From the UHGV virus genome UHGV-0050635: a stretch of DNA of 10,490 nucleotides. The stretch is one strand, 5' to 3'. Origin of the DNA: a virus. Below the pieces are notes generated by a model, which saw only the letters and a program-made list of their open reading frames with translations, did not search any database and had not been told where the DNA came from. The translations under genes were made by a program, and so were the position numbers. Below are positions 2,527 through 9,596 of this stretch, piece after piece (the stretch's first letter is position 1; the number at the start of each line of letters is the position of its first letter).

Positions 2527-3198
2527 TCACCCATCTTGCTGCGGTGCTACTATTGAAAAGTGCTCACACCCTTTAGCCCAAATAGTTTTGATAGTTGTCC
2601 AACTGACTGGAACCTTGATTTCGATTCTCCCGCTACAGTCACAAGTTTCGCAATCATCATCACCAAAGCATTCCGGGCAGCTTATAAACGTAGTTTCTGA
2701 AAATTCACCGGATAGCACACCCTTAGCGCCGTTCTCGGCTGTTAGTCTCTTCGGCACCATGACCCAACCATCCGGAATTACCGGAGAGTTGCCGGGTTCT
2801 TTAATGTGCAAGCGAGGCTCACCATCTTTTGGCTCAGGCCACTGGCGCTCCATGTTGATCTTCAATTTATCTTCCATAGCAGCGGTAATTTCAGCATCGC
2901 TGATGCCAGCACGGCGCTGTGAATCCCACAACAGAAACTGCATATCAGCCCACTCGCTAAGATCGTCTGGTTCGGCTGCGGCTTCCAGTGCCTCTTTTGA
3001 GAGGTGTTTCAGTGGACCAATGGGGCCAACGCAGCCAAATGTGGAGTCAGACCATTTGGCATGCTCGTGGCGAATCTGTTCGCGTTCCAGTGATGCCAGT
3101 GCAATTCGTGCCAGTTCCATTTGTTCGCCACGAGTAAGCCCGTTTTCAAGCGGATTTTTAATGAATAATTCGATACGTTCTTTGGTAATAGTGGTCAT
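2527..3198 (-). CDS. Putative MazG-like (all-alpha) dNTP/NTP pyrophosphohydrolase domain protein with a Cys-rich C-terminal domain (223 aa)
   Basis: ATG at 3198 with AAGGTGA upstream. The N-terminal region (EQMELARIALASLEREQIRHEHAKWSDSTFG ... DMQFLLWDSQRRAGISDAEITAAMEDKL) resembles the phage dATP/dGTP pyrophosphohydrolase/MazG-like fold. The C-terminus carries CPECFGDDDCETCDC. Family assignment is from recalled motifs, not a search. Confidence 0.5.
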   Translation of the reverse strand: MTTITKERIELFIKNPLENGLTRGEQMELARIALASLEREQIRHEHAKWSDSTFGCVGPIGPLKHLSKEALEAAAEPDDLSEWADMQFLLWDSQRRAGISDAEITAAMEDKLKINMERQWPEPKDGEPRLHIKEPGNSPVIPDGWVMVPKRLTAENGAKGVLSGEFSETTFISCPECFGDDDCETCDCSGRIEIKVPVSWTTIKTIWAKGCEHFSIVAPQQDG

Positions 3199-5943: not shown

Positions 5944-6042
5944 AATTCACCTCAGAATGGACACGGCCCAAGGAAATAACGCTGATTTAATACTTCGACT
6001 CGGGACAAATTAAGGCATACCCGCATTCCTTCGCGGTCGCCA

Positions 6043-6201
6043 TTATGGCGATACCAGAGAGCTTTCTGCGTGTACATGCGTCTCTGTAACTTGCTCTCCT
6101 TCACTGTGGTTGCAAGTGACATGAATATCTCCTTCGTTACCGATTAATTCTTTCATCTGACGAATGAATTCTTCGTCTGACCAGTTATCCGTAAAACTCA
6201 T
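6043..6201 (-). CDS. Hypothetical small protein (52 aa) in the position lambda kil occupies (immediately after and overlapping cIII)
   Basis: ATG at 6201 overlaps the TGA of the cIII-like gene (ATGA). Assignment is by position only; no sequence similarity to Kil is claimed. Confidence 0.45.
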   Translation of the reverse strand: MSFTDNWSDEEFIRQMKELIGNEGDIHVTCNHSEGEQVTETHVHAESSLVSP

Positions 6202-6368
6202 GGACGGCCTTGTTGTTTCAAAATATCCCAAAGCTTTTCGAGCAAACTTTTCATTCTTGGTTGTTTAAAGTCTGCTCCGGTTAAAATATTTTTTCGTGAA
6301 TGCTGTACCGATAAAATCGGGTTGAAAGGGCGAACCGATGCCGCCCCTGCAATAGCGAACTGTTGCAT
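6198..6368 (-). CDS. cIII: cIII-like protein (putative FtsH/HflB inhibitor that stabilises cII), 56 aa
   Basis: ATG at 6368 with AGGAG 7 nt upstream. The N-terminus MQQFAIAG and the SLLEKLWDILKQQG segment parallel lambda CIII (MQYAIAG ... SLLERITRKL...IDILNQPG). Position in the operon matches. Confidence 0.6.
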   Translation of the reverse strand: MQQFAIAGAASVRPFNPILSVQHSRKNILTGADFKQPRMKSLLEKLWDILKQQGRP

Positions 6369-6432
6369 AGGATGCTCCTTCTGTTTGATTGCATAACGAA
6401 AACGCCTCAAGTGAAGCGTTATTGGTATGCAT

Positions 6433-6459
6433 ATAAAAAAGCCCTCACACTGGAGGGCG
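6433..6459 (-). terminator. Rho-independent terminator on the - strand upstream of cIII (tL-like, presumably overridden by N)
   Basis: On the - strand, stem gccctc-cagtgt-gagggc is followed by TTTTTTATAT. Confidence 0.6.
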
Positions 6460-6520
6460 AAGAAGATTTCCAATAATCAGAACAAGTCGGCTCCTGTTTA
6501 GTTACGAGCGACATTGCTCC

Positions 6521-6548
6521 GTGTATTCACTCGTTGGAATGAATACAC
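6521..6548. repeat. Perfect 9-bp inverted repeat (gtgtattca N10 tgaatacac) in the intergenic region
   Basis: Seen directly in sequence. Candidate protein-binding site or RNA hairpin within the pL transcript. Confidence 0.5.
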
Positions 6549-6592
6549 AGTGCTGTGTTTATTCTGTTGTTTATGCTAAAAATAAAGGCCGA

Positions 6593-7216
6593 CTATGCGG
6601 CCTCGGAAGGAAGTCCAATCATCTTATTCAAATCTTCTACCCGTAAAGCAGGAAGTGCTGTACTTGCTTTATCTGCTTCTTTTGGTAGCAATTCTTTGCT
6701 TTCAGGCCAAACCTCAATAAGTCGCTTAACTGTTGTGACTGAGTTCAAAGCAGCCCATACATTTGATTCGATATCCTTTTTCTTGGCTTCAAGTTTTTGT
6801 TGCAATGCGCAGATTTCATCAAACCTTTTTGTTATTTCGTGTTCTGCGCTAAACATGCATTTATCTTTTATCGGAGTAGGGAGAAATATATCTTCGCCGT
6901 TGCCGTCTTTCCCATATGAATGCCATCCAACCCTTCTGCCAGATACAGTCAGATAAATTGAAGTAGAACGAAAATCGTATGAGTAAAATGAACATCCCAT
7001 CTTTCCAAGTTCTTCACTTATAGCTACCAACTTGGATGATAACTGATCCACTTCCTCAGTTTTCTTTTTACCGCCAAACGCAATAACTCTGGCGTCAAGT
7101 GCAAGCTGGTTCTTTAACTTTGTTACTTCTTCAAGCTCAGTGAAAACCCCAGACTTAATTAAAGCGTTACGAGCGATTTCCTCTTTCATTCTCGTAGTTA
7201 AGCGGATTGATGACAT
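6593..7216 (-). CDS. Hypothetical protein (207 aa) in the accessory hotspot between cIII and ral
   Basis: ATG at 7216 with GAGGA 6 nt upstream (the track ORF starts at an upstream TTG). No predicted transmembrane character and no recognisable family. A hairpin overlaps the stop codon (6585-6602). Confidence 0.7.
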   Translation of the reverse strand: MSSIRLTTRMKEEIARNALIKSGVFTELEEVTKLKNQLALDARVIAFGGKKKTEEVDQLSSKLVAISEELGKMGCSFYSYDFRSTSIYLTVSGRRVGWHSYGKDGNGEDIFLPTPIKDKCMFSAEHEITKRFDEICALQQKLEAKKKDIESNVWAALNSVTTVKRLIEVWPESKELLPKEADKASTALPALRVEDLNKMIGLPSEAA

Positions 7217-7252
7217 ATTAATTCCTCTCAAATAAGAAAATAAAGGCCACCA

Positions 7253-7453
7253 TCAGGCAGCCTTGTTGTTCAGTTCACCAAGTTCTCTGGCAATCATTGC
7301 CGTCGTTCGTATTGCCCATTTATCGACATATTTCCCATCTTCCATTACAGGAAACATTTCTTCAGGCTTAACCATGCATTCCGATTGCAGCTTGCATCCA
7401 TTGCATCGTTTGAATTGTCCACACCATTGATTCTTATCAATAGTCGTAGTCAT
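7253..7453 (-). CDS. ral: Ral-like restriction alleviation protein (66 aa)
   Basis: Translation MTTTIDKNQWCGQFKRCNGCKLQSECMVKPEEMFPVMEDGKYVDKWAIRTTAMIARELG... matches my recollection of lambda Ral nearly residue for residue, and the gene sits at the lambda ral position between N and cIII. Confidence 0.7.
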   Translation of the reverse strand: MTTTIDKNQWCGQFKRCNGCKLQSECMVKPEEMFPVMEDGKYVDKWAIRTTAMIARELGELNNKAA

Positions 7454-7523
7454 ACGGATAGTCCTGGTATTGTTCCATCACATCTTGAGGATGCTCTTCG
7501 AACTCTTCAAATTCTTCTTCCAT
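7437..7523 (-). CDS. Candidate micro-ORF encoding a 28-aa highly acidic/aromatic peptide (MEEEFEEFEEHPQDVMEQYQDYPYDYDY); not in the supplied ORF track
   Basis: ATG at 7523 preceded by GAGGTGA at 4-nt spacing. The stop TGA at 7437-7439 overlaps the ral start region by 17 nt. Found by manual translation. Confidence 0.35.
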   Translation of the reverse strand: MEEEFEEFEEHPQDVMEQYQDYPYDYDY

Positions 7524-7578
7524 ATCTCACCTCAAATAAGTGGTTTGCTGCGAAAAAGTAAAACAATGATATTCACTT

Positions 7579-7845
7579 CTATTTGTCATCGTGTAAGTGA
7601 CGCAGGTTATTAACTCGCGGCCAGTAATATTTTGGCTTGGCACGAGATCCGGGTCTTGGACCTACGCAAACTATATAGCTCTCTTCTTTCCTCGGAAGGC
7701 CAGGTGCATCTAGCAGACGGCCTAGTTCGAATTTTTTTACGTTGACACCAGGAGGAATCACCTCGACGATAAACCCGATTTTTACCTTCGTTACACCGTT
7801 TGATGAGCTTGACCATTTAACTTCATCGTTCAATTTGAACTTCAT
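7579..7845 (-). CDS. Hypothetical protein (88 aa; alternative ATG at 7848)
   Basis: Tandem ATG codons at 7848 and 7845 with GAGG just upstream. Located directly after the N-remnant stop, i.e. in the position of the first gene downstream of N. Confidence 0.65.
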   Translation of the reverse strand: MKFKLNDEVKWSSSSNGVTKVKIGFIVEVIPPGVNVKKFELGRLLDAPGLPRKEESYIVCVGPRPGSRAKPKYYWPRVNNLRHLHDDK

Positions 7846-7853
7846 CATTAACC

Positions 7854-7955
7854 TCAATCGTAATAAGCTGGAATTGATTTTCCGCGTTGTTTCTGGCGGC
7901 CTGAGCAGGTCACACCCATTTCACTGCGTGGCTTGCTGTAATAAATTCGGTTAGT
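7854..7955 (-). pseudogene. Remnant of the 3' end of a lambda-like N gene (33 in-frame codons: TNRIYYSKPRSEMGVTCSGRQKQRGKSIPAYYD) downstream of nun
   Basis: Manual translation of the - strand between the nun terminator and the 88-aa gene gives a peptide closely resembling the lambda N C-terminal region (..YSKPGERGITCSGRQKIKGKSIP..). There is no RBS and it begins after an in-frame stop. Confidence 0.5.
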
Positions 7956-7960
7956 TCAGA

Positions 7961-7985
7961 CAATAAAAAACCCACCGAAGTGGGC
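7961..7985 (-). terminator. Rho-independent terminator on the - strand immediately after nun
   Basis: On the - strand, stem cccac-ttcg-gtggg is followed by TTTTTTATTG. Confidence 0.65.
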
Positions 7986-8314
7986 TATGACCATTTTTTA
8001 TTTGGATTTCGTTGGTGAGCGTGATTAACAACTCTGTGCATTACATCCTCATATTTTTCATCTTCAATTTTTTCGACATCGCGAGGAAATGGTGTTGCTA
8101 ATGCTTTGTCAACTTTATCCATTGGGTCTTCATTAATCTTATATTCAGGACCGTCATCTATAGCATTAAATCCAGGTGTTACACCGTTTTTTAATGCATA
8201 TGCTATCCTCTTTTCCCATCTCGCTATTCTCCTCCTGTCTCGAGATGTAAGACCTCTATCAGATACTTTTCTGTTTTGTCCGCGGTCAGGATTAACATAA
8301 ATAGTCTTTTTCAC
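7985..8314 (-). CDS. nun: Nun-like transcription termination / phage-exclusion protein (HK022 Nun type), about 109 aa
   Basis: Contains the arginine-rich motif DRGLTSRDRRRIARWEKRIAYALK and the C-terminus ...NPNKKWS with the penultimate Trp characteristic of HK022 Nun. Start is uncertain: GTG 8314, ATG 8317 or ATG 8323. Confidence 0.8.
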   Translation of the reverse strand: MKKTIYVNPDRGQNRKVSDRGLTSRDRRRIARWEKRIAYALKNGVTPGFNAIDDGPEYKINEDPMDKVDKALATPFPRDVEKIEDEKYEDVMHRVVNHAHQRNPNKKWS

Positions 8315-8325
8315 CATAAGCATAC

Positions 8326-8631
8326 TCAATAAGCACCGTACGGTAGTTTACTGTACAATTTTATTTTTTGGACTGCATGTATTTTGTTTCCTAATGGGTT
8401 TGAATCTTTGTAATAAATACTTCTATTTTTTCGAACGACTTCTTCTTTCTTCTTGCAGCAAAGGATTCCTAGTGATGCTGCTTTGTCTGCTTTGACGCAA
8501 CCAGAGAGCTTTAGCGCAATTTTTCGCGCCAGTGCTTCATTACTGCGTCGCTCGGCAATAAGTTCTGCTCTGCGAGCTTTGTAGCGGCTTTTTGCCGTAC
8601 CTTTGGATTCTTTCCAGACAATGGTTACCAT
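8326..8631 (-). CDS. N: N-like transcription antiterminator, phage-21-type arginine-rich motif (101 aa)
   Basis: ATG at 8631 with AAGGAG 6 nt upstream. The N-terminal GTAKSRYKARRAELIAERR is the phage 21 N ARM as I recall it. The C-terminal region resembles N-family tails. A cognate nutL lies upstream. Confidence 0.8.
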   Translation of the reverse strand: MVTIVWKESKGTAKSRYKARRAELIAERRSNEALARKIALKLSGCVKADKAASLGILCCKKKEEVVRKNRSIYYKDSNPLGNKIHAVQKIKLYSKLPYGAY

Positions 8632-8741
8632 GATGGTCTCCTTTAAGTGGCTTTGGCGCATGACGCGTCGAGGTGCTTATCTTCTCGATCGCTGTCTTGC
8701 AGCTGCAATTCGCGCCATCCCCAAAACCACTCAAGTTCTGG

Positions 8742-8827: not shown

Positions 8828-8881
8828 AATTTAAGACTTCTTAATTTATTGGTCAAGTGCATTTTTGAAGAAAACTTAATT
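8828..8881 (-). promoter_or_regulatory. OL/pL: two P22-type operators (8829-8846 ATTTAAGACTTCTTAATT; 8864-8881 TTTGAAGAAAACTTAATT) overlapping a leftward promoter (-35 TTGACC forward 8851-8856, -10 TAAATT forward 8828-8833)
   Basis: Operators fit the P22 c2 consensus AnTnAAG-N4-CTTnAnT. The promoter hexamers on the - strand are separated by a 17-bp spacer. Confidence 0.6.
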
Positions 8882-8920: not shown

Positions 8921-8948
8921 GAAATAAAAAAGGGGCGAAAGCCCCTTA
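8921..8948 (-). terminator. Rho-independent terminator of the repressor transcript (- strand)
   Basis: On the - strand, stem aggggc-tttc-gcccct is followed by TTTTTTATTTCC. It overlaps the c2 stop codon. Confidence 0.7.
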
Positions 8949-9596
8949 AGGAAGGTTTGCTAGCTTGGCATCAACGACAACGCCAATGATTTTACAGTTC
9001 CCATTGATTTCAATCATTGGGTATTGTGGATTGAGTGGTTTCAGGAATTTTCTACCGGCATCAATAACTAACTTTTTGAATGTCGCCTCGTTTTCTCCTT
9101 CAAGTTTGGCGACTACCAACTTTCCATTACGTGGTTCGACTTCTGGGTCGACGAGAATAATCATCCCCTCAGGAATACTCAGTCCTGCCGGGGCAGTCAT
9201 TGAATCGCCTTTAACGTCGAGCCAAAAAGAGTCTTCAGAACAATCTACCGTTGTGTCGTACCAGTTATCTATTGCACGCCTATGATATGGCTCTACAGCT
9301 TCCATCCAACATCCTGCGCTTACCCAACTAATTAGAGGATACGAACCTCTTGGATCATGCCTGCTGTGATAGGCAATGTTTGAAAGACTATCCTCTCCTT
9401 TCAACAGGTAATCAGGGGAGCACTGCAAAGCCTTGGCTAAGGCCAATAGGTTTTCGCCATTGGGCTCAGTTTCAGATCGCTCCCATTGGGAAATAGCAAC
9501 ATTAGACACGCCAACCATCTTGCCAAGGGCAGCCTGCCTAATCTTGAGTTCTTTTCTGCGAGCGCGAATACGCTCACCCATCAGTTGTGTATTCAT
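8946..9596 (-). CDS. c2: Phage repressor, P22 C2 type (LexA/S24-like autocleaving repressor with N-terminal HTH), 216 aa
   Basis: Translation MNTQLMGERIRARRKELKIRQAALGKMVGVSNVAISQWERSETEPNG...IIGVVVDAKLANLP is nearly identical to my recollection of P22 C2. P22-type operators flank it on both sides. Confidence 0.9.
   Translation of the reverse strand: MNTQLMGERIRARRKELKIRQAALGKMVGVSNVAISQWERSETEPNGENLLALAKALQCSPDYLLKGEDSLSNIAYHSRHDPRGSYPLISWVSAGCWMEAVEPYHRRAIDNWYDTTVDCSEDSFWLDVKGDSMTAPAGLSIPEGMIILVDPEVEPRNGKLVVAKLEGENEATFKKLVIDAGRKFLKPLNPQYPMIEINGNCKIIGVVVDAKLANLP

Follow-up and report, generated by a model that had tools for sequence, protein, structure and literature searches.

The Nmad5 domain (Pfam PF18757, 'nucleotide modification associated domain 5') marks a widespread family of phage proteins. 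The name was reportedly given by Iyer and colleagues in 2013 on the basis of neighbouring nucleotide and base modification enzymes. In Yuavirus (M6, SN1, PAC9) and in cyanophage Pam3, Nmad5 lies in thymidine hypermodification clusters, between the aGPT-Pplase1/5-hmdU DNA kinase genes and a thymidylate-synthase homologue. In the gene order of phage M6, it adjoins the genes of the 5-NedU pathway. This pathway has been rebuilt in vitro from gp51 to gp54, without Nmad5 (PMC8989533).

The experimental literature on Nmad5 is the study of Tmn defence in Dhillonvirus phages SMA8 and SMS22 (Yamashita et al. 2025, PMC11846954). Phage escape from Tmn maps to a single Lys-to-Glu change in Nmad5, at K216; reversion restores sensitivity, and deletion of the gene gives no escape. 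The wild-type gene was uncloneable and is apparently toxic, and the wild-type protein does not protect against Tmn. The label 'DNA modification enzyme' used in that study rests on citation of a 2013 computational prediction (PMC11846954).

Closer relatives of the gene considered here are found in lambdoid phages: HK542 (gp33), APC_JM3.2, the PhiR12 series, and many Stx1a/Stx2a phages. Their proteins are 97-99% identical to the one described below and carry the same RefSeq annotation, and their genes sit at the same point of the pL operon, with N or ral immediately upstream and cIII downstream. Only the neighbouring cassettes vary (ral, nun, ea10, gp17, and an ORF for a 322-residue coiled-coil protein). 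The present copy lies in a 10,490-nucleotide stretch of viral DNA (the window), which corresponds to a lambdoid prophage's leftward early (pL) operon.

A single-gene cassette in the leftward operon

The gene is a frame of 207 codons that runs, in the ORF list and the sequence, from an ATG at 7216 to a TAG at 6593 on the minus strand. The ribosome-binding site, GAGAGGAA, is 6-13 nt 5' of the ATG. (A 212-residue version of the ORF with a TTG start is unneeded.) The product has a mass of 23.2 kDa and a pI of 7.65. The gene is 40% GC overall and 34% at GC3, a low GC3 shared with nun and ral and unlike that of the recombination genes.

The operon around it can be followed from the immunity region leftward. 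A cI-type repressor gene occupies 8946-9596, and the promoter scan finds a pL-like promoter (TTGACC, 17-nt spacer, TAAATT) at 8828-8856 on the minus strand. On the same strand lie an N-type antiterminator gene (8326-8661), recognized by its arginine-rich motif, a weak Pfam N_peptide match (E=0.004), and its annotation as N in phage mEp235; a gene for a Nun-type termination factor (7985-8323; phrog_5632, E=3e-70); and ral (restriction alleviation; 7253-7453; Pfam Ral, E=1.5e-47), the 5' neighbour of Nmad5. The 3' neighbour, also on the minus strand, is a non-coding region resembling LPR1/tL2a (6430-6596; blastn and terminator scan), which ends in a hairpin at 6441-6458. In lambda, LPR1 is an Hfq-bound small RNA from the ral-ea10 region that ends at terminator tL2a (bioRxiv 10.1101/2024.10.31.621285). 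Next comes a cIII-like gene of 56 codons (6198-6368, minus strand), which matches phrog_550 ('CIII anti-termination', E=1e-22) and nothing in a Pfam search; lambda cIII matches it at 78% identity over the 5' end and the sequence upstream. Genes for a Rad52-family annealing protein, SSB, and Abc2 follow downstream. The original prediction, made from the sequence alone, had named ral, cIII, and Nun as neighbours, and these assignments hold.

Other features were noted along the same stretch. The antiterminator motif, TAKSRYKARRAELIAERR, is phage-21-like, and nun follows the N gene directly, as in mEp235; a terminator-like hairpin lies 3' of nun at 7986-7969. Between nun and orf28/ral is an ORF for a basic 88-residue protein (7579-7845, minus strand) that belongs to phrog_11941, of unassigned function, and has no Pfam match; it adds a further uncharacterised cargo gene to the interval. 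Two overlapping 56-residue ORFs (5952-6122 and 6043-6213, minus strand) separate the cIII-like gene from the Rad52-family gene, at the place of kil in lambda. Both carry the PHROG label 'recombinase' (phrog_1723 and phrog_2123), which looks carried over from neighbouring genes, and neither has a Pfam match.

Comparison with lambda (blastn) delimits the inserted material. Positions 7237-7548 of the window are 96% identical to lambda ral and orf28, and positions 6430-6596 match the lambda intergenic region between ral and ea10 (LPR1 small RNA/tL2a) at 95% identity. These two stretches are contiguous in lambda, whereas in the window Nmad5 separates them. A direct repeat of about 18 nt (TGATrGTsGGCCTTTATTTT) stands at both junctions, and each copy forms a terminator-like hairpin; lambda has one copy only, which links ral straight to the LPR1 region. 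The terminator scan and the lambda alignment place the 5' copy at 7243-7264 (minus strand), where the hairpin AAGGCTGCCTGATGGTGGCCTT followed by TATTTTC ends ral, and the 3' copy at 6585-6604 (minus strand), where the hairpin GAGGCCGCATAGTCGGCCTT followed by TATTTTT overlaps the TAG stop codon of Nmad5. Relative to lambda, then, a single-gene cassette sits exactly between ral and the LPR1/tL2a region. The cassette is absent from lambda and is carried by HK542 and mEp235.

The window has Nmad5 where ea10 is absent; the next lambda homology is the cIII start region, from 6430. Ea10, the positional counterpart in lambda, was considered as an Nmad5 homologue and rejected (hhalign probability 0.2%).

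The 5' edge of the cassette comes from a comparison of 82 related loci. A 20-nt leader that includes the ribosome-binding site (CTTATTTGAGAGGAATTAAT; 7217-7236, minus strand) is constant among them, and sequence further 5' varies with the upstream gene (N, ral, or others). The leader marks the edge because it is the sole upstream sequence that moves with the gene. No promoter was found inside the cassette in any of the 82 loci. Since only these 20 nt are constant upstream, the mobile unit consists of ribosome-binding site, ORF, and hairpin, and is promoter-less. The LPR1/tL2a region also lies 3' of Nmad5 in most of the 82 loci.

Family membership, fold and conservation

The original prediction had described a soluble 207-residue protein of no recognisable family. 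The protein is in fact a full-length member of Nmad5: residues 4-203 match positions 1-206 of the 206-position Pfam profile with 240.3 bits (cut-off 27; E=2.8e-71). It also matches phrog_1965 (E=1.5e-82), a PHROG entry without assigned function. In RefSeq, 12 of the 12 matches listed, sampled across the identity range, bear the label 'Nmad5 family putative nucleotide modification protein'. The sequence has the C-terminal signature of the family, SVTT.K.L...WPE..ELLP ... LPA....DLN..IGLP, as well as its N-terminal RLT...I..NA..K.G and GG motifs. This score, thousands of relatives, and a dN/dS of about 0.36 across 62 alleles establish the ORF as a real gene. Solubility, too, is borne out, because the protein contains no hydrophobic stretch (Kyte-Doolittle, 19-residue windows, maximum 0.6). 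The gene is a catalogued member of a widespread known phage family, and not a new kind of element.

A search for known defence or exclusion homologues in PADLOC, Pfam, PHROG, and NCBIfam returned Nmad5 or nothing: PADLOC gave no family at E<=1, and NCBIfam gave no match. (The 'NMAD' domain in validated and predicted defence systems of the DefensePredictor study was also considered; the supplement shows it to be Nmad2, PF18753, an unrelated family.)

The family is large. Among complete E. coli genomes, 211 of 5,426 carry the gene, at 95-99% identity. A profile search of 1.84 billion representative proteins found 2,270 clusters at E<=0.001, 691 of them at E<=1e-10. Almost all of the best 150 of the 2,270 clusters are stand-alone proteins of about 200 residues, and longer members contain the Nmad5 domain alone, with no domain fusions. 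Single queries with three distant members gave no match among viral contigs; a narrower Nmad5 alignment as query reached 4 species-representative genomes.

The AlphaFold model is confident overall (pLDDT 84.8, pTM 0.70) and begins with a short N-terminal strand, followed by helices at residues 8-22, 24-47, and 50-72, and by a small β-meander at 86-100 with short strands. In the C-terminal part, a long helix (127-158) is followed by short helices (163-176) and by a tail of low confidence with a short helix at 193-199; confidence is low in the conserved tail at residues 184-192 and 203-207. The structural comparison suggested with the original prediction brought no solved relative to light: the best Foldseek match in the PDB has E=0.22, and a sequence-profile search of the PDB yielded coiled-coil noise alone. 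Among predicted viral structures (BFVD) there are 11 significant matches (E<=0.001), the best with E=6.4e-12 and a TM-score of 0.74. All of the annotated ones are Nmad5, and several are nameless. The protein thus has the predicted fold of other family members.

Conservation was read from alignments of 18 and of 50 family members. In the 50 diverse members, five residues are invariant (G93, L166, L176, P178, and N197) and thirteen are nearly so: L6, I14, A18, G23, R43, G48, G49, T162, W170, P171, E172, L196, and G201. The same alignment of 50 members contains no conserved residues of catalytic type. As judged from these alignments, the pattern looks structural, not catalytic. Conservation is strongest in the last 55 residues (AALNSVTTxKRLIEVWPESKELLP...LPALxVxDLNKMIGLP). 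By eye, the C-terminal tail contains neither a β-clamp-binding motif (QL[SD]LF) nor an SSB-tail motif (DDDIPF).

The 82 E. coli loci encode 57 protein variants, whose changes cluster in residues 48-125; of the 60 variable sites, 43 lie between residues 51 and 150 (helix 3, loops, and β-meander). The N-terminal helices and the last 55 residues hardly vary.

Neighbours of Nmad5 in other phages

In the E. coli loci, Nmad5 always lies in the N-to-cIII interval, and the company it keeps there changes. Of 84 related loci, 51 have N as the upstream neighbour, 14 have ral, and 6 have Nun, with other genes in the remainder; at least 8 different neighbours occur. The 3' side is occupied by cIII, ea10, gp17, an ORF for a Lys/Glu-rich coiled-coil protein of 322 residues, or other small ORFs. 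Modules for immunity, replication, and recombination (Rad52 or Erf) differ around an identical Nmad5 protein. In Klebsiella, Providencia, Serratia, and other Enterobacterales, relatives with 40-60% identity show the order cI, N, Nmad5, recombination genes. Among the related enterobacterial loci, there is no constant partner gene. Neither the window nor any of 126 enterobacterial loci (84 E. coli and 42 other) has a thymidylate synthase, kinase, aGPT-Pplase, or glycosylase gene near Nmad5. This bears on the functional label of the gene and leaves its sequence membership in Nmad5 intact.

Two of the 3' companions deserve mention. The 322-residue coiled-coil ORF, which belongs to no Pfam family, occurs in many related prophages (for example, locus L009, 6798-7766), and a P22 gp17-family gene sometimes takes a position 3' of Nmad5 (locus L012, 6799-7110). 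Both are missing from the window.

These comparisons bear on the location claimed by the original prediction, a classic exclusion hotspot between cIII and ral. The N-to-cIII interval is indeed a site of variable cargo, and the gene does track with it in enterobacterial lambdoid prophages. The description as an exclusion hotspot between cIII and ral is loose, because lambda has ea10 and LPR1 there and carries sieB between N and ral.

More distant members occupy a variety of settings. Salmonella phage SPN3UB has Nmad5 in the nin region, and Edwardsiella phage eiAU has it after the primase-helicase gene. In an N4-like Klebsiella phage, it follows thymidylate synthase and precedes a block encoding a PD-(D/E)XK nuclease, primase, and SSB. 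An Oceanospirillum phage has a helicase gene, Nmad5, and then genes for a nucleoside 2-deoxyribosyltransferase and DNA methylases. In Vibrio phages, the gene lies amid small early genes; the copies of Dhillonvirus and of CP-T1-like Vibrio phages are lone genes on the opposite strand within structural modules. The family is thus often, though not always, near genes for DNA and nucleotide metabolism. Most sequenced Nmad5 phages are virulent or carry the gene in a lytic early module. These genomic placements, virulent phages included, argue that the family serves lytic growth.

The Yuavirus and Pam3 proteins belong to the same Pfam family as the window protein (E=3.8e-32) and have the same conserved C-terminal region, but lie among modification genes that the window gene lacks. 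The Dhillonvirus protein matches the same Pfam domain over its full length (E=2.8e-55), and the motif DKKLIKAWPE...LNEICGIP is common to both. However, it is longer (254 residues or more), its gene lies on the opposite strand in the head-gene module of a virulent phage, and BLASTP aligns it over the C-terminal ~100 residues alone, at 33% identity. Transfer of the Tmn and toxicity data to the lambdoid protein is limited by this partial alignment, which covers the C-terminal half. K216 of phage SM_A8 aligns with R165 of the window protein, a residue of the helix that immediately precedes the WPE motif.

Transcription and possible function

On the minus strand, the pL-like promoter is the sole consensus promoter upstream of Nmad5; a relaxed scan of 7190-7900 gave 8 of 12 matches at best. 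Such scans would miss weak promoters of the kind known for nun. According to the terminator scan, terminator-like hairpins stand between Nmad5 and both nun and ral. The likely source of transcription is pL, and N antitermination would have to carry transcription past the hairpins that follow nun and ral. Because no consensus promoter intervenes between pL and the gene, and because of these hairpins, Nmad5 can be read as a pL/N-dependent early lytic gene. Most likely, expression starts early in the lytic cycle or once the prophage is induced, and the repressed prophage does not express it.

We propose, with even chances of being right or wrong, that Nmad5 is a promoter-less pL cassette for an early lytic, non-catalytic protein that binds a conserved component of DNA metabolism. 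The cassette would have been inserted by recombination at the short boundary repeat between ral and LPR1/tL2a, and would be read from pL with the help of N antitermination, at an early lytic stage or following induction. The protein would act by binding and not by catalysis. Its binding part may be the most conserved element, the C-terminal helix and tail (TTVKRLIEVWPESKELLP...LPALxVxDLNKMIGLP, with TTVKRLIEVWPE as the helix); the tail as a binding motif is a guess, because AlphaFold confidence there is low. The presumed target would be conserved across bacteria and tied to DNA replication, recombination, nucleotide metabolism, or surveillance. Lambda Ea10, Ral, CIII, Kil, and Gam/Abc2 share with Nmad5 the operon, small size, and solubility, and probably the logic of early N-dependent expression. 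Of these, Ral, CIII, Kil, Gam, and Abc2 act on host proteins; by analogy, the operon neighbours Ral, CIII, Kil, and Abc2, which act on host factors, could serve as models for the mode of binding.

The family name implies something else: a catalytic or accessory part in a nucleotide or DNA base modification pathway, with phage DNA or the dNTP pool as substrate. The linkage to thymidine-modification genes in Yuavirus and Pam3 is real and conserved, and counts against a purely binding protein. The thymidylate synthase gene before the N4-like Klebsiella copy, the nucleoside 2-deoxyribosyltransferase and DNA methylase genes after the Oceanospirillum copy, and the presence in the window of a gene for a protein with a dATP/dGTP pyrophosphohydrolase domain (2527-3198) point the same way. 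However, such enzymes adjoin Nmad5 neither in the window nor in any of the 126 enterobacterial loci (84 from E. coli, 42 others), where it keeps company with N, ral, nun, cIII, ea10, and recombination genes; and the gene stands alone in the structural modules of Dhillonvirus and CP-T1-like Vibrio phages. The M6 pathway, moreover, runs in vitro without Nmad5 (PMC8989533). The protein has neither conserved residues of catalytic type nor an enzyme-like fold, although absence of invariant catalytic residues does not strictly exclude an enzyme or an enzyme subunit. A modification role is, in our judgment, improbable, and for the lambdoid members the evidence does not support the labels 'nucleotide modification' or 'DNA modification enzyme'. 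Protection of the lysogen, by a superinfection-exclusion or defence gene expressed from the prophage, was one half of the original prediction. The variable cargo space near ral and nun fits it (nun being an exclusion function), as does the low GC3, which like that of nun and ral suggests acquired cargo. SieB, RexAB, and Nun also share with Nmad5 a general location, the region left of immunity in lambdoid prophages. Nmad5 differs from them: it has no homology to these proteins, no promoter of its own in sequence scans, and no membrane segment, and its family extends beyond temperate phages. The exclusion proteins SieA, SieB, Imm, and Cor have a membrane segment; Nmad5 lacks one and has no PADLOC match. 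The cassette is promoter-less, with none detectable upstream short of pL, and terminator-like hairpins separate it from nun and ral. Most sequenced carrier phages are virulent or have the gene in lytic early modules. All this makes exclusion in the lysogen very improbable.

An anti-defence or host-takeover role is possible, as the Dhillonvirus escape from Tmn hints by analogy. In its narrow form, as a dedicated counter-defence protein that acts in lytic growth against one immune system (a KAP/Tmn-like NTPase or a DNA-sensing nuclease), this role, the other half of the original prediction, would suit the operon, which Nmad5 shares with the known counter-defence genes ral and abc2. Charge reversal at the Dhillonvirus equivalent of R165 allows escape from Tmn and deletion does not, as would be expected of a surface that engages a defence protein; the allelic variation in residues 48-125 could be a target-recognition surface. 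Yet wild-type Dhillonvirus Nmad5 gives no protection against Tmn (PMC11846954), and the conservation of the family all the way from phages of enterobacteria to cyanophages is more in keeping with a universal housekeeping target than with a single immune system. With its near-neutral pI, the protein is not a DNA mimic of the acidic Ocr/ArdA type. Nor does the 207-residue protein have a match in the supplementary files of one accessory-gene screen for counter-defence (PMC12373910). We consider so specialized a role rather unlikely.

A broader version of the proposed binding protein is tentative, and we lean against it while taking it seriously: Nmad5 would be misnamed, and would be a widespread effector of host takeover or counter-defence, with about 2,300 clusters at 50% identity, whose invariant C-terminal helix and tail dock on a universal bacterial protein of DNA metabolism or surveillance. 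If so, the lambdoid copy, a clean cassette in tractable phages, would be ideal for finding the target. If the family did act by binding a conserved host factor or an immune sensor, this would also explain how one point mutation allows Dhillonvirus to escape Tmn, and the family label should then change. The interest of the gene lies in the function of a very common phage family and in a fold without a solved relative.

The far-left accessory region of the window contains further genes. The pyrophosphohydrolase-domain protein has 223 residues (2527-3198, minus strand; PF04447, E=7.3e-42; DUF550 in RefSeq), and linkage of its gene to Nmad5 is inconsistent across other loci. Rfam and tRNA scans of the window were empty, and the window contains no integrase or tRNA gene. 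The left end (42-611) is the 3' part of a host gene for an oligosaccharide MFS transporter, followed by a TorI/excisionase-like ORF on the minus strand (1141-1341). With host sequence on the left and no integrase or tRNA gene, one end of the prophage is placed at about 611-1140.
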